NCBI RefSeq assembly: GCF_000008625.1
Contig: NC_000918.1
Coordinates: 1,290,001 to 1,322,000 of the forward strand
Reading direction: 5' to 3'
Length of the DNA: 32,000 nt
Source of the DNA: Aquifex aeolicus VF5
GTDB taxonomy: Bacteria; Aquificota; Aquificia; Aquificales; Aquificaceae
Shown: positions 3,461 to 20,783 of the stretch, piece after piece
Position numbering within the stretch: the first letter of the stretch is position 1
How the letters are laid out: the number at the start of each line of letters is the position of its first letter
Position numbers and translations under genes: made by a program
The notes under the pieces: model-generated
Told to the model about the DNA's origin: nothing
Databases searched by the model: none
The model's input: the letters and a program-made list of their open reading frames with translations, nothing else

Positions 3461-4582
3461 ATGATGATGGTAGAGTTAAAGGGTAAAGTAGAAGAACTTA
3501 GAAAACGGCTTGAAGACGTAAAGAAGATACTTTCTCCTGAGAAACTTGAGAGTGAATTAAAAGAACTCGACCAGAAGATGTCAGAACCAAACTTCTGGGA
3601 GGATCAGGAAAAGGCCAAGCAGGTAATACAGAGAAGGAAGTGGGTAGAGGAAACTCTGAATAAATTGAAAAACCTTGAAAAGAGTGTAAAGGATTTAGAG
3701 GAGCTAGTGGAGATAACTTCCGAAGAGGACACGGAAACCTGGGCGATGATGGACGAAGAAATCAAAGAAGTGGAAAGGACTCTAAGAGAACTCGAACTAA
3801 AGACTTACCTTTCCGGAGAGATGGACGCCAAGAACGCGTATCTCACCATACAGGCGGGTGCGGGAGGAACGGAAGCCTGTGACTGGGCCGATATGCTCTT
3901 CAGGATGTACAAGAGATGGGCTGAAAAGAAAGGGTACGAGGTTGAACTCATAGACATAACTCCCGACGACGTAGCCGGTATAAAGAGCGTTACAGTCCTC
4001 GTAAAAGGTCCATACGCTTACGGATACCTGAAGGGAGAGCAGGGAGTTCACAGACTCGTGAGGATTTCTCCCTTCGACGCGAACGCAAGGAGACACACCT
4101 CCTTTGCGGCAGTCTCCGTTATGCCCCAGATAGACGAGGACATAAAGATAGAAATAAAACCTGAGGACCTGAAGATAGAAACCTTCAGGGCTTCGGGAGC
4201 GGGAGGACAGTACGTAAACAAAACCGATACTGCGGTTAGGATTACACACATTCCCACAGGCATAACAGTATCCTGTCAGCAAGAAAGGTCTCAGTACCAG
4301 AACAAGAGAAAAGCACTTGAACTTCTGAAGGCTAAACTCTATCAGCTCGAGATGAAGAAACTGGAAGAAAAGAAAAAGCAGTACGAAGGCGAGAAAACGG
4401 ACATAGGCTGGGGTCACCAGATCAGATCCTACGTCTTTCACCCCTACAAACTAATAAAGGACCTCAGAACGGGTTACGAGACGGGAAACGTGGAAGCAGT
4501 AATGGACGGAGAGATAGACGAGTTCATAGAAAGTTACCTAAAGTGGAAAGCTCAAAAGGAAAAAGAATCATCCAACAACTAA
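3461..4582 (+). CDS. prfB: Peptide chain release factor 2
   Basis: 373 aa with the RF2-specific SPF tripeptide (RISPFD) and the GGQ motif ([11 protein letters not shown]). The ORF is uninterrupted, so no +1 frameshift site is present. Confidence 0.95.
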
Positions 4583-5440
4583 TACCTGCTTTCCTTCTGC
4601 ACTCTCTTCAAAACCCTCCACGTAAAGGCTGAGCAGCTTAGCCCCCTCCACCAGAGCTTGAATTAAGACGGGATCCCTCAATCTGAAAGGGGGGTCCAGC
4701 TCGTAAACAACCTTTGCATACCCCCTGTCAAGCTTAACGAAAACGGATAGAGTTCCCTTATCGTAATCAAAAACCTCCTCTCCTTCTACTTCGTTAACGG
4801 GTATAACACTTATCCTCTTTACGTTGAATTCCCTCTTTAGTCCCTCGAAGTAGTCTTTGGGCTCTTTACTTTCCCTCAAAAGCTTCAAAATCTTCCTTAA
4901 GTTTGAAAACATCCTCTTTTCTCTCTCAAAGTTTGAGAACTCTTTCAACAATTTATGGTAATTCTTCTTCAGCTTTAAGATACGTTTCCTTTCCTTCCCT
5001 ACAACCGTAGCGTACTCAAAGTTGTACGACGTAAAGAAAAGTGCCAGAAACAATATAAAGTGAGAAATCATCAAAAGGTAATGACCGGAGAAATAAAAAA
5101 AAGCAAGGCCGTAAGTTTCAAGAAGAATTATTCCCGCTAGAACAGGTTTTCTCCAAGCGTAAACGGATATTAAAACTCCTAAAGCGTAAATAGAGTAAAG
5201 AATTTTAGAGAAAAATACAAAGGCAGGAACGAGAATTATATCCAGAAAAGGAGAAATTAATTGAAGAATTCTTGGTTTTGAAAAGAAGTAAACGTAAACG
5301 TTTATCAAGAAGTAAACTGAGAGAATTCCGACCGCAATGTAATTAACGTTCTCATACGAAATAAGAAGGAGTGTGGAGAGATAGAGGACGACTAAAAGCC
5401 TTGCTACGAAGAAAACCTCCCTTTTTACTTTATCCAGCAT
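4568..5440 (-). CDS. Polytopic membrane protein with a cytoplasmic coiled coil and a small C-terminal domain (function unknown, sensor-like)
   Basis: 290 aa. It has about 5 hydrophobic segments in the first 150 aa, then a K/E/R-rich coiled coil and a roughly 90-aa globular tail. It lies 21 nt downstream of the PilM/GspL-like gene on the same strand and overlaps the convergent prfB end by 15 nt. Confidence 0.6.
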
Positions 5441-5461
5441 TAATTTAAAAATAGCACACTT

Positions 5462-6496
5462 TTACTTAAGTACTAAGGTAAACTCGTACGTACCTTTAGG
5501 AGTTTTTTTTACGCTTTCAGGTTTTAAACGCCTGACTATTTCCTCGTTCCCCTCCCCTACTAACTTTAAAACCCCGTTCGTGTACTCAATCCTGTAAACT
5601 TTTACACCTTGAGGCAGTTTCATAAAAGCTTTATTGAACTTAATTAAAACGGATTCTTTTTGTGTTTTGGTTAAACTTTTTAACTGCTCTTCCACCAACA
5701 CAGGCGGGATATCGGGAAACTTCTGGGAAAACAATTCCTTCTTTTTTTGATTTAAAGTTTTGAGTGTTTCCTTCTTTACAGGCTCCTTTAGCGTAAAGTA
5801 CGCAAAAAAGGCAAGCGTGGACACACCCAAGAACAGGGCTAAAGTCCTCTGTTCCTTCTGAGATATCTCCTCCTTTCTGAAAGAAGGACTTGAATCCTTG
5901 TACACGAACTTCAGGGAAGCCCCAAATGCTGAATTTAGTTCCGGCTCACAGTAATCGTTAAACAAAGGTTTTTCTACGAATTCTTCTATTCCCTTCAGTC
6001 TTGCTCCCCCTCCACTAAGGAGTACCTCTCCCGAAAGGTCCACACCTAACCCTTCCATTATTTCGTGAAATGCTTTTTTGACAATTTCGTTTTTTAAGCC
6101 TTTTTCTTTTTTAATCCTTTCAGCTTCTTCGTAGTTTACGTTTAAGTTCTTTACTAAGTATTCGTTTAAATAATCTCCGCCCTTTAAAACTACTCTGTAA
6201 AAATCCAGTTCTCCCTTTGAAACTTTAACGAAGGTCGTTTTTCTCCTTCCTATATCGAGTATTTTTAGTTCTTCCTTTCCGAGAACTCCGGATATTCTCG
6301 CAAGGGAGAATACCTCGCAATCCAGTGCGTAGTAATCCTTTGGAACTTCAAAGTCTTTTGCAAGAACCAAGTAGTAGTAGCCATCTTTAAGTGAAAAGTC
6401 CCACAGAACTTCACCGAATTGTGAAACTTCATACTTTAAGTATTCCTTCAATTCGGATATCTTTTTAATTTCTGTTTTTTCTTTTTTACGAGACAC
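5462..6496 (-). CDS. PilM/FtsA-like actin-fold domain + TM + periplasmic domain (GspL or PilM-PilN-fusion architecture), main reading frame
   Basis: Actin-fold motifs are present (ILDIGRRKTTFV, VLLSGGGARLKGIEEF). A single TM (LALFLGVSTLAFFAYFTL) is followed by a roughly 100-aa C-terminal domain. The listed GTG start has no RBS, and the real N terminus appears to be in another frame (next feature). Confidence 0.65.
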   Translation of the reverse strand: MSRKKEKTEIKKISELKEYLKYEVSQFGEVLWDFSLKDGYYYLVLAKDFEVPKDYYALDCEVFSLARISGVLGKEELKILDIGRRKTTFVKVSKGELDFYRVVLKGGDYLNEYLVKNLNVNYEEAERIKKEKGLKNEIVKKAFHEIMEGLGVDLSGEVLLSGGGARLKGIEEFVEKPLFNDYCEPELNSAFGASLKFVYKDSSPSFRKEEISQKEQRTLALFLGVSTLAFFAYFTLKEPVKKETLKTLNQKKKELFSQKFPDIPPVLVEEQLKSLTKTQKESVLIKFNKAFMKLPQGVKVYRIEYTNGVLKLVGEGNEEIVRRLKPESVKKTPKGTYEFTLVLK

Positions 6497-6615
6497 TTGT
6501 GAGAAGGGATTACGTATATTTTTTTCCCTTTCTTACTTGTAGGCTCCCAGGTTTTCTCCAAGAGTGAGTAAGATACGCTGAACCACTTCTCCCCGTCAAT
6601 GCCCGTAAAGATCAT
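6448..6615 (-). CDS. Probable true N-terminal segment of the PilM/GspL-like gene, in the frame +1 relative to the main ORF (a -1 shift is needed to join)
   Basis: The ATG at 6615-6613 forms an ATGA overlap with the GTPase stop and follows GGAAGG. It encodes MIFTGIDGEKWFSVSYSLLEKTWEPTSKKGKKIYVIPSHK, resembling the GIDIG phosphate-1 start of PilM/FtsA. The frame closes at 6448, and the main frame is open from 6532. Poly-A runs (A7, A6, A6 on the coding strand) lie in the overlap. Confidence 0.5.
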   Translation of the reverse strand: MIFTGIDGEKWFSVSYSLLEKTWEPTSKKGKKIYVIPSHKCLVKKKKQKLKRYPN

Positions 6616-7172
6616 CCTTCCATGTAAGATTTAATCAGTTTAAGTAAAAGCAGGAGGGTTTTCTTTACGTCTTCCTTGTTCTTCGCAGAGATTCCTATAA
6701 CGGGTATCCCTTCTTCTTCGGATATGTCTAAAGCTACGGCAACGTCTTCAGGAGGCCAGGCGTTTGGGAGATCCTGCTTGTTTGCCGCAACAACCATAGG
6801 AACCGGATACCTGCTCTGGAAGAAGTTTATTATCCTCCTCGCCTCGTGAAAGGTCTTCGGATCAGTACTGTCTACGAGTATTACTATGCCGAGGGCACCT
6901 TCTCCTAGAATTTCCCACATGAAGTTAAACCTGCTCTGTCCGGGGGTTCCGAAAAGGTAAAGCTCGTGTTCATCGTCTATCCTTATCTTTCCAAAATCCA
7001 TGGCAACTGTTGTCTGCTGTTTTACCTCTTTTTCCTTTTCGTGGGTTACTTTTTTGTCCGTAGTTACTGGTTCTATTTCGCTTATAGTCTTTATAAACTC
7101 CGTTTTTCCCGCTGCAAAAGGTCCTGCTACAACTATCTTTATTTTCTTTAAGTTATTCTTCTTTTCCGTCAT
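6612..7172 (-). CDS. Small P-loop GTPase, CvnD/MglA-related (COG2229-like)
   Basis: 186 aa with G1 GPFAAGKT, G3 LFGTPGQ and G4 ANKQD. TTVAMDFG is typical of the conservon CvnD-type family. The start forms an ATGA overlap with the upstream gene's stop. Confidence 0.85.
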   Translation of the reverse strand: MTEKKNNLKKIKIVVAGPFAAGKTEFIKTISEIEPVTTDKKVTHEKEKEVKQQTTVAMDFGKIRIDDEHELYLFGTPGQSRFNFMWEILGEGALGIVILVDSTDPKTFHEARRIINFFQSRYPVPMVVAANKQDLPNAWPPEDVAVALDISEEEGIPVIGISAKNKEDVKKTLLLLLKLIKSYMEG

Positions 7173-7861
7173 AACTTCTTGATTTTTTCAATTAATTTCG
7201 TCAAAAGATCCAAAGAAATCGTAGGCTTTCTTATCTCTTTTTTCCTCTTTCGTCTTATAGCACCTATAGCGAGGAGTCCGTAGAGTGTTCTGTACACGGT
7301 CAACTTATCAAGTCCGCTCTTTTCCAGTATATCTTTTACGGTGTTCTCTCCGTTTACCAGTTCCAGAACTTTTCTTTCTTCTTCCTTCAGGTTAGCCCTT
7401 TGCACTTTTACTTCCCAATCGGGGGCTTTTTCGAATACGAGGAGTTCATCGGATATCTTTCTCTCTGTTTCTTCAAGGGTGAGGTGGCGGGCAGCCTCCA
7501 TTATGAGTTCTTCCGCCGGAAAGGCAACCGGCACGTTCTCTGGATAATTTATAAACCCCTGTGTAAAGGAAAATATTCCGTCTTTGTTTTCCAGCCTGCT
7601 CAGGAAAAACTTCTTAATGGTTTCCGCCATAGTCCTTTCATTGAGCCTAAGCTTTTCTATCAACTTTTCAAAGTCACGATCTACGTAAACCCTGAAGACT
7701 TTATCCACCGGTCTTGCGAGTACAAGTTCTCCGTCTTTTATGTAGTAAGCAACCGTGATGTCGGGCCACTCGACTATCAGCACACCGCTCTTTTTATCGT
7801 GGTGAAGAACTTGAAGAATATCCGCAAAGGAAAAGGACTTTAAATCTCCCGTGAGAGCCAT
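7169..7861 (-). CDS. DUF4388 (PATAN-like) domain protein with a C-terminal wHTH-like segment (occupies the CvnC/DUF742 position)
   Basis: The N terminus LTGDLKSFSFADILQVLHHDKKSGVLIV...YYIKDGELVLA matches the DUF4388 signature as I recall it. The C-terminal ERKVLELVNGENTVKDILEKSGLDKLTVYRTLYGLLAIGAI looks like a winged helix. Confidence 0.7.
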   Translation of the reverse strand: MALTGDLKSFSFADILQVLHHDKKSGVLIVEWPDITVAYYIKDGELVLARPVDKVFRVYVDRDFEKLIEKLRLNERTMAETIKKFFLSRLENKDGIFSFTQGFINYPENVPVAFPAEELIMEAARHLTLEETERKISDELLVFEKAPDWEVKVQRANLKEEERKVLELVNGENTVKDILEKSGLDKLTVYRTLYGLLAIGAIRRKRKKEIRKPTISLDLLTKLIEKIKKL

Positions 7862-7864
7862 CGC

Positions 7865-8218
7865 TTAGATGAGTTCCTTTAATTTCTGCTGAGCCTTCTT
7901 GATTTCCATATAAATCAATCCAAGTTTACTGTCCTGTCCCGCTAAAGTCGTGAGAACGGCATCCTGTCCTATTTCCGTTATTACTACGTATCCTTTATCT
8001 CCCTTGATCGTTATCTGCTCCATAGTTCCCTTACCGAGTTCTTCAACGACTCTTTCACCGAGTGAGAGTATGGCGGCACTCATAGCGGCTACTTTGTCCT
8101 CTTCTGCGTTCGCGGGAAGAACTGAAGCTATGGGTAATCCGTCTAGACTCACTATAGCCGCCCCCTCAATCCCTGAAGCCTTTATCAATTCCTGTAGAAC
8201 TTCCTCGTATTTATTCAT
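7865..8218 (-). CDS. Roadblock/LC7 domain protein (MglB/CvnB-like)
   Basis: 117 aa. GIEGAAIVSLDGLPIAS...AAMSAAILSLGERV...VVITEIG is a classic Roadblock/LC7 pattern. It ends 3 nt upstream of the next gene. Confidence 0.85.
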   Translation of the reverse strand: MNKYEEVLQELIKASGIEGAAIVSLDGLPIASVLPANAEEDKVAAMSAAILSLGERVVEELGKGTMEQITIKGDKGYVVITEIGQDAVLTTLAGQDSKLGLIYMEIKKAQQKLKELI

Positions 8219-8230
8219 TCTTTCCCTCCA

Positions 8231-8890
8231 TTACTTAAAAAATTCTAACTCCTTTTCTATTTCTTCCAGAATACTTTTAGTTCTGGTTATTTCCGCTTTC
8301 ACCAATTCCTCTTCACCGGCTTCGGCGTAATTTTTCACTTTCTTTATTGTATCATCCAACTCGTAAATTTTGCGTTTTATGTTGTCAATCTTCTTTGCAA
8401 TTTCACTTAAAGATTCTCTGAGTATTTCTCCGAGAGCACCCGCTGGGTCGAGACCGGTCGGCAACGCTCCGTACTCTATTTCACCCTGCTTTAACCTTTC
8501 AACTACTTCCATAATTTGGCCGAGCTTTTCAACAACTTCCGTATACTCCACGTGGACGTCTGCAAGTTGCTTTTCCAGAGAACTTTTAACGTTTTTTATA
8601 CCTCCTTCAATATAACTCACTATATCCCGTAGCTCCTCGTACAGGGGGGAGTAAAAGACACTTCCTTCAAGGTTTTGTCTATTTTCGTAAACAAATTCCG
8701 CAAAGTAGAGAAGCACTCCTAGAAGTTTTTCTACCTTTTTTGTGTATACGTAAGAAGTAAAGGCTGAAACAAAGAGGGCGTAACCTCCGGCGATTAAGGA
8801 AGATACTATTAATTCCGTTTTTAATACAAAGAAGAGAATCAAGAAGTTCAATAAAAATAGAAAAATAAAAATAAAAAGATAAGCTTTCAA
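8231..8890 (-). CDS. Two-TM membrane protein with a HAMP-like linker and long coiled coil, with no kinase/ATPase domain (occupies the CvnA position)
   Basis: 219 aa with two N-terminal hydrophobic helices, then heptad-rich E/K sequence (GALGEILRESLSEIAKKIDNIKRKIYELDD). It has a TTG start and lies 12 nt upstream of the Roadblock gene. Confidence 0.6.
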   Translation of the reverse strand: MKAYLFIFIFLFLLNFLILFFVLKTELIVSSLIAGGYALFVSAFTSYVYTKKVEKLLGVLLYFAEFVYENRQNLEGSVFYSPLYEELRDIVSYIEGGIKNVKSSLEKQLADVHVEYTEVVEKLGQIMEVVERLKQGEIEYGALPTGLDPAGALGEILRESLSEIAKKIDNIKRKIYELDDTIKKVKNYAEAGEEELVKAEITRTKSILEEIEKELEFFK

Positions 8891-8925
8891 AAACTCATCG
8901 GTTAAAGAAATCCACTTCAGTACCT

Positions 8926-9558
8926 TTATTTCTTGCCCACCTCCTCGAACTTTATTAATTTAATTTTATCAACATCCTTACCGAAGGATACACCGAATTC
9001 CGAAAGCTCGCTGACCTTAGCTAGATGGACGTAGCCTTCTATTACTTTCATAGCGTAGAGTTCTTTTACTTTATTCAGGTAATTGAATATATCCTCTTCG
9101 AGTATGGCGTTTCCCACGTAACCCCTCTGGAGTGTAGAAACGTGGAATATTAGCTTGAAAGGTTTTCCATATTTTGCGAGTTGTTTTAGGTCGTTATTCA
9201 AGGCTTCCTGAACCTGTTCGTCGGGAAGCTCTCCGAAGTACGCCATGTATAGAGCCTTTGGATTGTACTTTTTGAGGGAAGGGATTAAGTCTTTTCCGCC
9301 CTCTATATACCACGCTTTTTTGCCAAGTATCCTGAGACCCGTTACGAGTGCCCCTGCAAATACCGCACAGAGTTGAGAGTCTTCCATAAAGACTACACCT
9401 ACTTCGTTAAAGCCGTTTTTTGCAAGCAGTTTTGCGGTAGCGTAGGCAACGTTGAGCCTCGGGTTTACGGTCTTGGGATTTATGAACTTGTTTTCCGCAA
9501 AGGCGAACTTTAAAAATGGAAATGAAAGTCCTGCAATTAAGAGTTCTCTCCTATTCAT
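8926..9558 (-). CDS. Secreted/periplasmic hypothetical protein
   Basis: 210 aa with an N-terminal signal-like MNRRELLIAGLSFPFLKFAFA. I recognise no family. The start overlaps the ilvH stop by 8 nt. Confidence 0.6.
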   Translation of the reverse strand: MNRRELLIAGLSFPFLKFAFAENKFINPKTVNPRLNVAYATAKLLAKNGFNEVGVVFMEDSQLCAVFAGALVTGLRILGKKAWYIEGGKDLIPSLKKYNPKALYMAYFGELPDEQVQEALNNDLKQLAKYGKPFKLIFHVSTLQRGYVGNAILEEDIFNYLNKVKELYAMKVIEGYVHLAKVSELSEFGVSFGKDVDKIKLIKFEEVGKK

Positions 9559-10129
9559 TTTCCTCCTCCTTTATGGACATTTCCCTCCTCATGGCGACCT
9601 TACCGGTTCTCGCCATCTCCTTGATACCGAAAGGTTTTAAGAGCTCAATCATGGCGTTTATTTTATCCTCATCTCCAGTAACCTCTATCGTGTAAGTGTC
9701 CGGAGAAACGTCAACGACCTTGCCCCTGAATATCTCCGTTATCCTCAGAACTTCGTCCCTTGCCCTGGAAGAGGGAGTGTAAACCTTTATGAGAGCGAGT
9801 TCCCTCTCCACGTGGGGAACGTCCGTCAGGTCGGAAACCTTCAGGGTGTCTATTAGTCTCCTGAGTTGTTTTACGACCTGCTCAATTACTATATCGTCTC
9901 CGATAACCTCAATAGTCATTCTCGATATTCCCTTTTCGTGAGTTTCGCCTACGGAAAGTCCTTCTATGTTGTAACCCTTTCCCGCGATTAAGGTCGCTAT
10001 TCTCGCAAGGACTCCCATCTCGTTCCTGACTTTTACCGTGATTATGTGCTTCCTGACCTGTCCTTTTCTAATTTCCCTCTTCTGGGGTTTAATAACTTCA
10101 AGCTCACTCTTTCCCAAAGTATCCGCCAT
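9551..10129 (-). CDS. ilvH: Acetolactate synthase small (regulatory) subunit
   Basis: 192 aa with an ACT domain (HIITVKVRNEMGVLARIATLIAGKGYNIEGLSVGETHEKGISRMTIEV) plus the ALS small-subunit C-terminal domain. No large-subunit gene is adjacent. Confidence 0.9.
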   Translation of the reverse strand: MADTLGKSELEVIKPQKREIRKGQVRKHIITVKVRNEMGVLARIATLIAGKGYNIEGLSVGETHEKGISRMTIEVIGDDIVIEQVVKQLRRLIDTLKVSDLTDVPHVERELALIKVYTPSSRARDEVLRITEIFRGKVVDVSPDTYTIEVTGDEDKINAMIELLKPFGIKEMARTGKVAMRREMSIKEEENE

Positions 10130-10156
10130 TACAATCCTCCTGTTTAATAATTTATT

Positions 10157-12034
10157 ATGAAAGTATTAAAAAAAGAGGAACTTGTCCCTACGCTTTATCA
10201 ATTGTTCTCACAGGCAAAGGAAAAGGTACTTGTTGTTTCCGCATGGATCAGGGGAAGCATATTTAAGGAACTCCTATCTTTGCTTCCCGAGAATGTTCAG
10301 CTTGAGGTAATCGTGAGGGCAGGGAACTTATCTGACATGGATATCACGGACGAAGCCTTCTTCAGGGAAACTAAGAAAAAGGGAGGAAGGATACTTCTCA
10401 ACCCCAAACTCCACTCTAAGTTCCTGATAATAGACGAAAGGTACGCGGTTGTAGGTTCTTCAAACATAACCTTTATGGGGCTATACCCTGAGGGAAATGT
10501 AGAGACAAACGTCTTGATAGAAGAAAAAGAAAAGGTAAAGGAACTCCTGGAGTTTTACGAGAACCTAAAAGAAGAATCCGTAGATTACACGGACGTTGTC
10601 GGCTATGCGGTATCTTCCCGCTCTCCAAAAGAAGCGGAAATCGTACTTCTCGAAGATCTGAAAGAACAGACATACCTCGGCATTCAAGGGGAGGAGTTTT
10701 TCCTGTGCAGGCTGAGCAACGTTTCGGGAAAAAAGGAAACCAGGGAAGATGCCCTTAACAGGATACTCTCGTCGGAAGTATGGGACTGGAAGGTCGCAGC
10801 CCTTTTTGCCCACCTTTACGAAAGACCTGAGATAAAGACGGGAAGGCTTGAGATACTCGGTGAGTACGAAAAGGAGAGAAATCTTTTTAAAACACCAACG
10901 AAAAGCGTGGAGTCCGGTTCTCTCGTGAAGAAACTAGAGCCAGAAAGCGAGGAACTAAAGAGAATACTCTTCAAGAACCACTCAGGGTACGACATGAAGT
11001 ATCCCACGTACCTCGGAAAACTCTACAACACGGAAGTAAAAGCTTACCTCGACATGGACAAGGTTCTGGGTATGCACATGGCCGTTTTGGGAACAACTGG
11101 TTCGGGAAAGACAACTTTTGTAAAAAAGATACTAAAAAACTTCAAGGAAAGCGAGGTGATAATTTTCGATATTTACGGAGAATACGCGCAGGAACTTGGA
11201 GCGAAAGAAGTAATAGTGGAAAACGTCTTAATGCCGATAAGCGTAGAAGACGTAAAGGATTACCTGAAGGAAGCTGGTTCCACTTTGGAAGAACGCTCAA
11301 CGGAAGAAAAGGAATTCTTTTCCGTCTTCAGAAGGGCATTAAAACCCGATATTGAAGCGACGGAGCTGAAAGAAAAGAGTTTTAAGGAAATATACGAGGA
11401 AGCTGTGAAGAACCTCCACTCTCTTCATCTAAAACAGGATGCCCAGTCAGTTTACGAACACCTTGAAAGAACCTACTCCAGAGGAGCTTTAGAACAACAA
11501 CCTAAGGTATTAAAGGAAGTTGTAGATTTTCTGAACTCCGAAGAAAGGGTGAAGGTCTTTAACTTCAAGGAAGTGGACATAACCGAAACGAAAGTAAACC
11601 TCACGGGGTTAATACTGAAAGAAATATTTATAAGAGCCAAAAAGGACAGGAAACCGCGATTGATAGTCATAGAAGAGGCTCAGAACGTAGCTCCCGAAAG
11701 GGGAACGGGAGATGTCCCGAGCGGAAAGGAGAACGTCGCTTTCGTTTACGCCAAAAAGATAGCGATGGAGGGGAGAAAGTTAAACCTAGGCTTGATAGCT
11801 ATAACTCAAAGACCCGCAAACCTGAGCAAGTTTATACTCTCTCAACTAAACACTCAGGTGATATTTAAATTAATCACAAAAAACGACCTTGACGCGGTAT
11901 CGCCCTTTTTTGAATACTCCAAAGAGGATATTTTCAGGCTCTTGCCTTTTTTAAAGCCGGGAACGGCCTTCGTAAGCGGCTTGGCCGTCCCCTTCAGTTT
12001 TCTGTTTCAGATGGAGGAAATTCCCTACTACTGA
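10157..12034 (+). CDS. Fusion protein: N-terminal PLD-family (HKD) nuclease domain + HAS-barrel + HerA/FtsK-type P-loop ATPase
   Basis: A perfect HxK(x4)D(x6)GSxN motif (HSKFLIIDERYAVVGSSN) is at nt 10412-10465. Walker A (GTTGSGKT) is at 11090-11113, and Walker B is LIVIEEAQNVAP. The HerA-like context is LGKLY...LDMDKVLGMHMAVLG, with a C-terminal ITQRPANLS. Confidence 0.8.
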   Translation: MKVLKKEELVPTLYQLFSQAKEKVLVVSAWIRGSIFKELLSLLPENVQLEVIVRAGNLSDMDITDEAFFRETKKKGGRILLNPKLHSKFLIIDERYAVVGSSNITFMGLYPEGNVETNVLIEEKEKVKELLEFYENLKEESVDYTDVVGYAVSSRSPKEAEIVLLEDLKEQTYLGIQGEEFFLCRLSNVSGKKETREDALNRILSSEVWDWKVAALFAHLYERPEIKTGRLEILGEYEKERNLFKTPTKSVESGSLVKKLEPESEELKRILFKNHSGYDMKYPTYLGKLYNTEVKAYLDMDKVLGMHMAVLGTTGSGKTTFVKKILKNFKESEVIIFDIYGEYAQELGAKEVIVENVLMPISVEDVKDYLKEAGSTLEERSTEEKEFFSVFRRALKPDIEATELKEKSFKEIYEEAVKNLHSLHLKQDAQSVYEHLERTYSRGALEQQPKVLKEVVDFLNSEERVKVFNFKEVDITETKVNLTGLILKEIFIRAKKDRKPRLIVIEEAQNVAPERGTGDVPSGKENVAFVYAKKIAMEGRKLNLGLIAITQRPANLSKFILSQLNTQVIFKLITKNDLDAVSPFFEYSKEDIFRLLPFLKPGTAFVSGLAVPFSFLFQMEEIPYY

Positions 12035-18164: not shown

Positions 18165-18794
18165 ATGGAATTTTACGACCCGAAAGTAAAGCAGGAAATA
18201 AAAGTACTGCCAAAGGACTACGTCCAGTCCGTGGATAACATGTCCGCAAACGACTTTTTAAAGATATACCTGGAAACCTTACGTTATCAGGATCCCTTTA
18301 ACCAAACTGACATCTCAAAAAGTTTGGACGATATGGTAAAGATAAACCAGATAAAGTACTTCACCGAAATGAAACAATTCCTCGAAAGCCTGAAGGCGTG
18401 GATGAACCAGATGACGTTCTTAAACACCGCTACTCTAATAGGAAAAGAATTTATCTTCAGGACTGAAGTTTTAGACACTATAAAGAGGGATAAATACTAT
18501 ATACTTTCACCGGAAAACGTTAACAACGCGAAAATAAGGGTTTACGACGGAGAAGAACTCGTTAAAGAGGTAAAAATTGATATAAAAAAGGGTTTGAACG
18601 AGATAGACGTCTCGGATTTGCCCAAAGGTCAGTTCAGTATAAAAATCTTTAAAGGGGATAACGAACTCACAGGCTGGCAACTCGGTTTTAAAGAAAAAAT
18701 AAACGCGGTAAGTATCCTGAACGGAGATTTATATCTGGAACTCTCTGAAGGAACTTTGATTTCTTCCGATAAAATTATTTACGTGGGGGGATAA
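18165..18794 (+). CDS. flgD: Flagellar hook capping/assembly protein FlgD
   Basis: The N-terminal FLKIYLETLRYQDPFNQTD matches the conserved FlgD motif (..L..QL.NQDPL.P.D). An Ig-like C-terminal domain follows. It lies directly upstream of flgE. Confidence 0.85.
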   Translation: MEFYDPKVKQEIKVLPKDYVQSVDNMSANDFLKIYLETLRYQDPFNQTDISKSLDDMVKINQIKYFTEMKQFLESLKAWMNQMTFLNTATLIGKEFIFRTEVLDTIKRDKYYILSPENVNNAKIRVYDGEELVKEVKIDIKKGLNEIDVSDLPKGQFSIKIFKGDNELTGWQLGFKEKINAVSILNGDLYLELSEGTLISSDKIIYVGG

Positions 18795-18797
18795 AGC

Positions 18798-20246
18798 ATG
18801 CTAAGGAGCTTTTACAACGCGATAACTGGCATGGACGTTTCTAGGTTTGCCCTGGACGTTACCTCAGACAACCTAGCAAATGCAAATACAGTAGGGTTCA
18901 AGAAATCAAGACCAATTTTTCAGGACATGGTTTCACAGGTAGTTGTAGGCTTAAACACCACAACAGGAACGGTAAAAACGACCACATTCGGAGCCGGAGC
19001 GGTAGTAGATTCCACTCAAAAGGTATGGACAATAGGCAGTTTTAAACAAACCGAGATAACGACTGACCTCGCTATAGAAGGTAAAGCTCTCTTTATACTC
19101 AGAGATGTTTTAACAAACCAAACATATTATACGAGAGACGGCAGATTCAGAATAAACAGGGAAGGATACCTTATTAATCCAAACGGACTTTACGTTCAGG
19201 GATTTAAGGTAAATCCTGTAACAGGTGAAGTTACCGGAACACAGTTAGAAGATATAAGAGTAGAAACGCAGATACCTCCGAAGGCTACCGGTGAGATTTA
19301 CTTTAATCCGCCGACGAATTTAGATGAGAGAGCTCCTATTATAGACCAAACTACTACACCTTTTAATCCTCTGGATTCATTTACCTACAATTACAGGTAC
19401 ACGTTAACTATTTATGACAGTTTAGGCAGGGAAGTTCCGGCGGATATTTATTTTGTAAAAACGGGGACGAATCAGTGGAAAGTATACTTCTTGGCTTCTT
19501 TAAAAGAAAGATATATAAACGTTGATTGGAACGGGGATGACGATAAAACAGATATAGTTTTCCTTGATTTATTTAACGATCAGGTTCATATTGCGGATAA
19601 CGGAACTTTTAGTACGCTCCCTACATTCGCTTCAAAGACCCTCGAGTTTGACCCCTCAACGGGGAAATTGGTATACATTCCGGGTGGTGATATTGTTCAG
19701 GATACAGCTAATCAAAAGTTTTACCTAGAAGTTGATTTAACACCGGAAAGTGGACCTTCTGAAATAAACGATCCGAACGATACAGAGTCTTACTTAAACA
19801 AGTTAGGGGCAAAGTTAGGTAGTGAAACTAATAAAATTAAAATTTACGTAGGTGAAGGTATATTACAGAATAATGTAATTCAAAATTCCTACATCACCCA
19901 ACACGCAGCGGACTTTGTCGTTACTATGGATCAAGACGGGTACGCAAGGGGCGAATTAATAGACTTGTACGTTCTTTCTGAGGATGGTGTTGTTGTAGGT
20001 GTATACTCAAATGGGGAAACCCTTCCTACTTACAGACTTGCCCTCGCACAGTTCACCGATCCCGAGGAACTTGTCAAGAAAGGTTCCAACCTTTACGCTT
20101 CTGTAAAAACTCCTACGATCTTACTCCCCGGAGGTTCTAACAAAATACGCTCCGCCGTTGTTGAAATGTCAAACGTGGACATAGCAAAGGAGTTCATAAA
20201 CCTTATAACAGCCCAAAGAACTTATCAGGTAACGCAAGGACGATAA
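18798..20246 (+). CDS. flgE: Flagellar hook protein FlgE (as written, lacks the conserved extreme C terminus)
   Basis: The N-terminal [12 protein letters not shown]...[14 protein letters not shown] and the distal [22 protein letters not shown] match rod/hook family ends. The ORF stops 5 codons after YQ, and the conserved tail continues in the -1 frame to 20293. Confidence 0.88.
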
Positions 20247-20297
20247 CCGTTACTAATACGATACTTGAGGACACGATAAATCTAGTAAGATAAAGGT

Positions 20298-20783
20298 ATG
20301 GCTGAAGAGGTAAGGGAAGAAGCACAGGCGGGCGGTGGGAAAAAGAAATTAATCTTCCTCCTTCTTCTCTTAATACTTCTCGCAGGTGCAGGGGCAGGAG
20401 CTTATTTTTTCCTATTTGCTAAAAAGGAAGAGAAAAAGGAGGAAAAAGCTCCAAAGGTTGCTCCTCCCGAAGTTGGCATTATGTACAAACTCGACCCGCC
20501 GTTTATAGTAAACCTTGCAGATCCTGAGGCAACCGTTTACGCGAGGATATCCATAACTCTGGAGGTTGCAAATCAGCAAGTACTTCAAGAAGTTCAGAAA
20601 AAAGAACCCGTTATAAGGGATGCGATAATTGAGATAATTTCAAGCAAAACTTCCAACGAGATAAGAACCCCCGAAGGTAGGGAACAATTAAAACTTGAAG
20701 TTCTAAAGCGTATAAATACAATCCTTTCAGAAGGTGGAGTGAGGAACGTATACTTTACAGAGTTCGTGATTCAGGTAGAGTAA
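20298..20783 (+). CDS. fliL: Flagellar basal-body-associated protein FliL
   Basis: 161 aa with a single TM (LIFLLLLLILLAGAGAGAYFFLF), then YKLDPPFIVNL...ISITLEV...EPVIRDAIIEIIS, typical of FliL. Confidence 0.85.
   Translation: MAEEVREEAQAGGGKKKLIFLLLLLILLAGAGAGAYFFLFAKKEEKKEEKAPKVAPPEVGIMYKLDPPFIVNLADPEATVYARISITLEVANQQVLQEVQKKEPVIRDAIIEIISSKTSNEIRTPEGREQLKLEVLKRINTILSEGGVRNVYFTEFVIQVE

Follow-up and report, generated by a model that had tools for sequence, protein, structure and literature searches.

In a 32-kb window of the Aquifex aeolicus VF5 genome (the whole stretch of DNA analysed here), six open reading frames (ORFs), labelled g1 to g6 and all on the minus strand, are separated by very short junctions, and a first-pass annotation had proposed that they form a conservon-like cassette in which a small GTPase switch is wired to a pilus/secretion-type membrane protein. 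Our results show that these six genes are not one conserved unit and do not constitute a new six-gene machine. The region is instead probably a juxtaposition of two separately conserved modules and one unrelated gene. One module would be an Aquificaceae-wide switch formed by a Roadblock/LC7 protein (g2), a PATAN (DUF4388) protein (g3) and a Ras-like GTPase (g4), preceded by g1 in Aquifex and Hydrogenivirga-type lineages. The other would be represented by g5, the gspL-type gene of a machine resembling a type II secretion system (T2SS), with gspE-gspL-gspM-gspK as its ancestral order. The gspL-gspM pair would have landed directly behind g4, with an ATGA overlap, in the common ancestor of one Aquifex clade, and a later rearrangement in VF5 and its closest relative would have put aq_1842 (g6) in place of gspM. 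In VF5, g5 would additionally have gained a 1-nt deletion, so that the pair, frameshifted and with gspM displaced, appears to be decaying.

The ORF check of the window recovered all six ORFs at the coordinates originally annotated, and the junctions read from the sequence were also as described: gaps of 12 nt (g1/g2) and 3 nt (g2/g3), ATGA overlaps at g3/g4 and g4/g5 (g5 start at 6615), and a gap of 21 nt (g5/g6). The 344-aa ORF of g5 matches a VF5 "putative protein" with 100% identity and the 290-aa ORF corresponds to aq_1842, while g4 was assigned to aq_1844 from its length, its neighbourhood and the identity of g6 with aq_1842. The genes and the frameshift site are arranged as follows (TM, transmembrane segment):

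8231..8890, minus strand: g1, 219 aa, TTG start (gene callers favour a 203-aa start)
7865..8218, minus strand: g2, 117 aa, Roadblock/LC7 protein (MglB-like)
7169..7861, minus strand: g3, 230 aa, PATAN (DUF4388) domain, winged helix-turn-helix (wHTH), polybasic linker and C-terminal amphipathic helix
6612..7172, minus strand: g4 = aq_1844, 186 aa, small Ras-like GTPase, MglA family Group 5
5462..6615, minus strand: g5, GspL-type assembly-platform gene, frameshifted; 344-aa ORF (5462-6496) plus N-terminal fragment from 6615
6481..6487, minus strand: frameshift site in g5, zero-frame heptamer A_AAA_AAG
4568..5440, minus strand: g6 = aq_1842, 290 aa, polytopic membrane protein with about five TM, a coiled coil and a C-terminal domain

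The triad of g2, g3 and g4 is found without g5 in a range of genomic settings. It stands alone beside asd in Hydrogenobacter thermophilus and Thermocrinis albus, and in Hydrogenivirga the order is ilvN, a g1-like gene, the triad and an MFS gene. A metagenome scan yielded 72 loci, with g3 and g4 together in 60/72 and the complete triad in 50/72; within the fetched DNA, neither g5 nor any T2SS or type IV pilus (T4P) query was detected after g4 in any of the 40 metagenome loci that extended at least 1.2 kb past g4. The triad proteins are also far more conserved than g5. In a close relative (L038; 222-kb contig, g3 78% identity), the 210-aa ORF that precedes g1, g1 itself and the triad lead directly into a convergent 113aa-cdaA-folP block, and this same block lies after g5-gspM in L029 and L030. 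Therefore, g5-gspM behaves as a two-gene indel. At 7244-7258 of the L038 contig, the GTPase stop codon lies inside an ATGAT, followed by another stop three codons on (ATG ATG TAT TAA), which may be the vestige of a g5 start left after a deletion. In a more distant clade, only the PATAN-GTPase pair is retained, amid housekeeping genes. There, the PATAN-wHTH and GTPase genes remain paired (L085 6001-7353; also L084, L086-L088, L091, L092, L095 and L096), with g3 at 43-47% identity, and tblastn with g2 gave no Roadblock match within the fetched DNA; the neighbours of the L085 pair are def, spoVG and pheT.

The genomic context of g5 was assessed in 22 fetched genome loci carrying this gene, whose neighbours were mapped by tblastn. 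In class A, the order is g1-Roadblock-PATAN-GTPase-g5 followed by a 131-134-aa single-TM protein (L007, L008, L027, L009/L029 and L017/L030); VF5 and L003 also belong to this class, but with g6 instead of the small single-TM protein. In class B, the order is T2SSE-g5-134aa-T2SSK, and one of these loci (L005) also contains T2SSF, T2SSG-type pilins and a PDZ protein with a secretin, in an organism that has, beside this cluster, a separate set of PilM, a PilN-PilO fusion, PilP and a secretin. Class C consists of g5 and the small protein, with nothing else. In the neighbour-joining tree of g5, class A formed one clade whereas class B fell into two, and therefore the gspE-linked order is probably ancestral and the linkage to the triad arose once. 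This implies that the triad-g5 linkage is one relocation event in one monophyletic Aquifex clade. Synteny of g1-g5 was seen in about five species-level lineages, and synteny of all six genes of the first-pass cassette in one close relative, but the six do not form one conserved unit. Regarding the 131-134-aa partner of g5, its matches to T2SSM were weak and sub-threshold (0.025), and the gspM-like profile retrieved nothing meaningful among PDB sequences; its assignment as a putative GspM is based on its size, its topology and its place in the gene order. The T2SSK (gspK-like) gene is in pieces in the metagenome-assembled genome (MAG) contig L005/L025 (L005 9559-10396) and intact, with 284 aa, in L006 (1970-2824), a Logan assembly otherwise identical to L005, so the broken copy is probably an assembly or strain frameshift.

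The last gene of the packed run, g6, is a neighbour by rearrangement and lies outside the system. It was correctly described as a polytopic protein with a coiled coil, but its membership of the cassette does not stand, as its homologues are flanked by a pseudouridine synthase gene on one side and by prfB on the other. These homologues (21, from the Aquifex clade) are represented in L034 and L035 by a gene that follows the pseudouridine synthase gene and faces prfB, far from g5. In VF5, g6 still faces prfB, and its leader sequence is identical behind g5 (VF5/L003) and behind the synthase gene (L035). No Pfam or NCBIfam model matched g6, and no homologue of gspM-like, gspE, cdaA or pseudouridine synthase genes was found within the window. 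The idea that g6 could be a divergent GspM was rejected, as hhalign against the gspM-like profile gave a probability of 0.1.

Concerning the identity of g5, the reconstructed protein has 384 aa and aligns end to end with 78 uninterrupted Aquificaceae homologues of 377-390 aa. The AlphaFold2 (AF2) model (predicted local distance difference test score, pLDDT, 88.6) comprises an actin-like domain (1-235), a TM/coiled helix (253-299) and a periplasmic domain made of two alpha-beta-beta repeats (306-383), with a single hydrophobic segment at residues 258-277. The cytoplasmic domain is matched by the hidden Markov models (HMMs) FtsA (6e-9) and PilM_2 (2e-8; 33.8 bits vs a cut-off of 27), the top Foldseek matches are PilM structures (5eq6, 5eou, 2ych and 3jc8; 1.7e-13 to 2e-11) followed by FtsA and MreB, and the g5 profile retrieves PilM among PDB sequences at 1.9e-6. 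The nucleotide-binding residues D7, K10, D121-G123-K126-T128 and G202-G203 are invariant. The VF5 protein gave no match to T2SSL (PF05134) or GspL_C (PF12693) at E<=0.05. Within the family, P0061 reaches 28.6 bits for GspL_C, just under the cut-off of 29.6, and in an exhaustive profile search the remote full-length relatives P0243, P0249 and P0254 combined FtsA/PilM_2 with GspL_C above threshold; still more distant relatives bear PilM_2, T2SSL, GspL_C and PilN, with P0283 and P0294 adding T2SSL. The architecture first proposed for g5 (an actin fold, one TM and a periplasmic domain) is therefore borne out by the AF2 layout, the PilM fold matches and the GspL_C domain of remote relatives. In relatives, g5 comes after gspE and before a gspM-like gene, the place of gspL in a T2SS-like cluster, and what was formerly a "hypothetical/FtsA-like" gene is probably a gspL-type gene.

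The g5 protein resembles GspL/EpsL and PilM-PilN in its predicted actin-like cytoplasmic domain, single TM helix and ferredoxin-like periplasmic domain. In contrast to GspL/EpsL, its cytoplasmic domain matches PilM, FtsA and MreB, with no GspL cytoplasmic structure in the top 50 fold matches; unlike GspL, it keeps the nucleotide-binding motifs, and the VF5 copy has no T2SSL match. Unlike PilM of type IVa pili, a separate cytoplasmic protein of the pilMNOPQ operon that binds the N-terminus of PilN, it carries a TM and a periplasmic domain in the same chain, and its domain of about 235 residues is shorter than PilM.

In VF5, g5 is interrupted. The ATG at 6615 opens a 55-aa ORF (6448-6615), whereas the 344-aa ORF is read in the -1 frame; the N-terminal fragment suspected in the first-pass annotation is thus real, but it is in another frame than the 344-aa ORF. 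A codon-level comparison with L003, L007, L008 and L027 revealed a 1-nt deletion in VF5, in the context GTA AAA AAG AAA AAA CAG, and joining the two ORFs after GTA AAA AAG, with (G)AA as the next codon, yields the 384-aa protein. A -1 slip at the heptamer A_AAA_AAG would restore ...CLVKKEKTEIKK..., the ancestral residues of relatives, and judging from the sequence, the protein would be restored only by such a slip. The frameshifted sequence is identical in the Logan assemblies L001 and L002, which come from other read sets (three read sets in total), and therefore the deletion is not a reference-genome error.

As A_AAA_AAG is a classical dnaX-type slippery site, the split gene could in principle be expressed through programmed -1 ribosomal frameshifting, with the 55-aa peptide and the full-length GspL made in a regulated ratio. 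The heptamer is in the zero frame (6481-6487), the slip gives exactly the residues of the relatives, and the sequence of the site is shared by the three read sets. All relatives, however, have one uninterrupted ORF, several of them with GTA AAA AAG in frame and without any shift. In addition, no Shine-Dalgarno-like element was seen upstream, and no convincing stimulatory structure was found downstream of the heptamer, where the sole hairpin lies about 25 nt past the site (z = -1.9 at 37 C) and is implausible at 85-95 C. We consider programmed frameshifting very improbable. Since the relatives are uninterrupted without a slip and no convincing stimulator was found, the simplest reading is that the deletion is a strain-specific mutation.

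In contrast to g5, the triad is intact in VF5, and its domain assignments were all upheld. The Roadblock/LC7 assignment of g2 is confirmed by Pfam Robl_LC7 (8.4e-25), while its match to the NCBIfam model for Thermus-type MglB (1.5e-6) is under the cut-off; g2 is presumed to be the platform for GTPase activation or nucleotide exchange (GAP/GEF) of g4. The DUF4388 domain and wHTH-like tail attributed to g3 were recovered with Pfam DUF4388 (PF14332; 1.2e-23, 83.9 bits vs a cut-off of 25, residues 4-128) and TrmB (3.2e-6), the latter near threshold (27.4 vs 25.6 bits) and with HTH matches limited to TrmB/MarR/IclR models. There are 118 homologues of g3, of 230-231 aa and 50-95% identity, and their named sources are nearly all Aquificaceae/Aquificota, with the exception of one MAG labelled Acidobacteria. 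At the C-terminus of all g3 orthologues, a polybasic stretch (RRKRKKEIRK) leads into a conserved amphipathic helix, ISLDLLTKLIEKIKKL (window 7169-7260, residues ~201-230), which may serve membrane targeting or partner binding. The AF2 model of g3 has a pLDDT of 89 and a predicted template modelling score (pTM) of 0.83. The protein had no informative sequence match and no significant fold match in the PDB (best E of the fold search 0.1), and therefore this PATAN fold is not tied to any solved structure.

The P-loop GTPase proposed for g4 is likewise evident from ATP_bind_1 (2e-19) and Ras (7e-12) and from the motifs GPFAAGKT, GTPGQ, NKQD and SAK. The protein also matches Pfam Arf and small_GTP TIGR00231 (1.5e-12; 47.6 bits vs a cut-off of 42.5). 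Its G1-G5 motifs (GPFAAGKT, TTVAMD, LFGTPGQ, NKQD and SAK) are invariant across seven orthologues, and it retains the glutamine of the G3 motif (catalytic Gln). No conserved arginine precedes TTVAMD at the switch-I position in the seven-sequence alignment, VF5 having KEVKQQ. With a single domain of 186 aa, g4 is of MglA-family size (240 aa or less). Among PDB sequences it matches Sec4, KRas, Arl8 and Thermus thermophilus MglA (6e-9). As HMM and PDB searches cannot separate g4 from eukaryotic Rab, Ras and Arl, its group assignment was taken from the published phylogeny, in which Suppl. Table S2 lists [quoted passage not shown] and records the same triad in Hydrogenobacter (PMC4316618). Therefore, the MglB-PATAN-MglA triad was already catalogued in that 2015 survey and is not new.

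The membrane protein g1 is a lineage-specific accessory of the triad, limited to the Aquifex and Hydrogenivirga-type clades. Hydropathy and an alignment of five homologues indicate an N-terminal 2-TM hairpin followed by a cytoplasmic coiled coil with a conserved motif P-x-G-L-D-P-x-G-A-x-G. Its Pfam and NCBIfam matches are to coiled coils only, all sub-threshold, and none to HAMP, HisKA or HATPase_c was found at E<=0.1. Hence, the two TM, the coiled coil and the missing kinase/ATPase were correctly anticipated, but the HAMP-like linker has no HMM support. The gene is found in L007-L009, L017, L033, L036, L038-L041, L043 and L057, and is missing from L031, L032 and most metagenome loci.

The locus has several likenesses with known systems. 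As in actinobacterial-type conservons (CvnA-CvnB-CvnC-CvnD), the order is a membrane protein, a Roadblock protein, a wHTH-containing middle protein and a GTPase; g2 and g4 together are the counterparts of the Roadblock (CvnB) and the GTPase (CvnD), and the GTPase has an ATP_bind_1-type Pfam match and a GTPGQ G3 motif. In contrast, g1 has no HAMP, HisKA or HATPase and is missing from most triad lineages, and g3 is a PATAN protein with no DUF742 match in Pfam. Since CvnA and CvnC are unmatched and conservon GTPases belong to Group 2, not Group 5, the conservon comparison holds for gene order and otherwise as an analogy only. The MglA/MglB switches of Myxococcus xanthus and T. thermophilus also have a small Ras-like GTPase gene beside a Roadblock/LC7 gene, but g4 belongs to Group 5, not to Group 1, and has no conserved switch-I arginine. 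In addition, a PATAN-wHTH gene stands here between the GTPase and Roadblock genes and is linked to the GTPase more tightly than the Roadblock is. Finally, g3 shares the PATAN (DUF4388) domain with the cyanobacterial PATAN-REC regulators PatA, PixG, PixE and LsiR, but it has a wHTH and an amphipathic tail instead of a receiver domain, and it is partnered by a GTPase and not by a chemosensory system.

A GTP/GDP cycle on a Roadblock dimer is established for MglA/MglB, and in the proposed working of the module the cycle of g4 would likewise be controlled by the g2 dimer. As g3 is always found with g4, it would serve as effector or obligate adaptor, with a probable membrane location conferred by its polybasic/amphipathic tail, and by analogy with cyanobacterial PATAN proteins it would most likely address the ATPase or the platform of type-IV-filament machines. 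The triad would be independent of g5 in cis, and their adjacency in Aquifex would be secondary and may or may not mark a shared site of action.

This juxtaposition has to be weighed against a dedicated coupling of g1-g5, in which a membrane-anchored switch would bind the PilM-like domain of GspL, directly or via PATAN, and so gate or position the T2SS-like platform, with translational coupling of g4 and g5 for co-assembly. Several points weigh for such a coupling and against a chance neighbourhood. The g4/g5 ATGA overlap is kept in every Aquifex-clade member, in about five species-level lineages, while g5 has diverged to 46% identity, which would be in line with selection for co-expression; where gspE precedes g5, those two genes are start/stop-coupled as well, and the position of g5 behind the GTPase, as elsewhere behind gspE, could mean an exchange of partners and not an accident. 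The actin-fold ATP-binding motifs of g5 are conserved. The target that we propose for the triad is itself suggested by analogy only, and the wHTH of g3 could instead indicate DNA binding. The plausibility of a functional link between switch and platform comes from cyanobacteria, where PATAN binds PilB and PilC, as in Synechocystis. [quoted passage not shown] Moreover, the polarity of type IV pili is under the control of MglA-family GTPases and their Roadblock partners (PMC4316618; PMC11580455), MglA and SofG govern the localisation of PilB/PilT in Myxococcus (PMC4316618), and PATAN proteins are among the MglA-related candidates in this organism (PMC11580455). On the other hand, the triad-g5 linkage has a single origin, is absent in 40/40 informative triad loci outside the clade, and is also absent from the close relative L038, where synteny is otherwise identical. 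As the first letters of g5 are ATGAT in nearly all lineages, an ATGA overlap would be automatic with any in-frame upstream gene. The triad, far better conserved than g5, clearly functions without g5 in cis, and in VF5 it has remained intact while g5 carries a frameshift and the locus has lost gspM. Therefore, a switch-to-GspL coupling in the Aquifex clade is plausible, with its specific support coming from one conserved gene junction and one evolutionary event, plus analogy, but as an explanation of the locus we regard the dedicated coupling as rather unlikely.

A signalling route to transcription, conservon-like or Group-3-like, is also to be considered. Its output would be the binding of DNA through the winged helix in g3, with no tie to secretion or pili, and the adjacency of g5 would be coincidental. 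In favour of it are the TrmB/MarR-type wHTH of g3, the pairing of MglA Group 3 GTPase and MglB with a protein of predicted REC-like N-terminus and wHTH C-terminus, the pairing of CvnB and CvnD with CvnC in conservons, and the likeness of g1, in position only, to a kinase-less CvnA. However, the wHTH match is near threshold, DUF742 and HATPase gave no match, and g3, with its polybasic/amphipathic C-terminus, looks more like a membrane-associated protein than a free DNA-binding regulator. In addition, the PATAN outputs studied experimentally are only protein-protein contacts with the pilus motor (bioRxiv 10.1101/2021.06.11.447907). We find this transcriptional output improbable. The juxtaposition of two modules and one unrelated gene thus remains our preferred reading of the locus.

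The main yield of this work is a corrected annotation, in which the aq_1844 triad is a known one, g5 a probable gspL-type gene with a frameshift, aq_1842 an unrelated neighbour and the linkage a single lineage-specific event. The GTPases of MglA Group 5 occur widely, as do their PATAN partners, and to our knowledge no function has been tested for either. A bolder proposal, which we hold to be unlikely, is that in the Aquifex clade the Group 5 GTPase, Roadblock and PATAN proteins replaced GspE upstream of gspL and directly control the assembly or placement of the T2SS-like machine via the PilM-fold domain of GspL. If true, this would make it the first T2SS with a small GTPase as its gate and would directly link PATAN/MglA modules with type-IV-filament platforms at the genomic level, and the Aquifex arrangement would give Group 5/PATAN a concrete, testable target in the GspL/PilM platform. 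The idea of pilus polarity under GTPase control, taken from Myxococcus, would also be extended to the secretion machines of a deep-branching thermophile, whose proteins crystallise well. We found no literature on aq_1842 to aq_1846, nor any account of this neighbourhood under Aquifex T2SS/GspL or MglA/PilM/PATAN.

The packed co-directional run begins before g1, with ilvN and then a 210-aa ORF, followed by a gap of 35 nt to g1:

9551-10129, minus strand: ilvN, preceding the 210-aa ORF with an 8-nt overlap
8926..9558, minus strand: 210-aa ORF, co-directional neighbour upstream of g1, with an RR-containing N-terminal hydrophobic leader

The RR-containing leader of the 210-aa ORF is MNRRELLIAGLSFPFLKFAFA. 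This ORF has no family match in Pfam or NCBIfam, and its position between ilvN and g1 is kept across the Aquifex clade. Scans of 4300-10400 for sigma-70 promoters and intrinsic terminators gave counts at the level of shuffled sequences and are therefore uninformative on the limits of the transcription units. Besides g5, no other T2SS or type IV pilus gene was found in the 32-kb window, which contains uvrB, flgD/flgE/fliL, asd and secA, among others. The flagellar block flgD, flgE and fliL lies at 18165-20783, about 10 kb from the GTPase cassette and on the opposite strand. Divergent from ilvN, with 27 nt separating the two starts, is a plus-strand gene (10157-12034) for a 625-aa fusion of a PLD-type nuclease and a HerA-like ATPase (PLDc_2, HAS-barrel and DUF87 in the Pfam list for L001).

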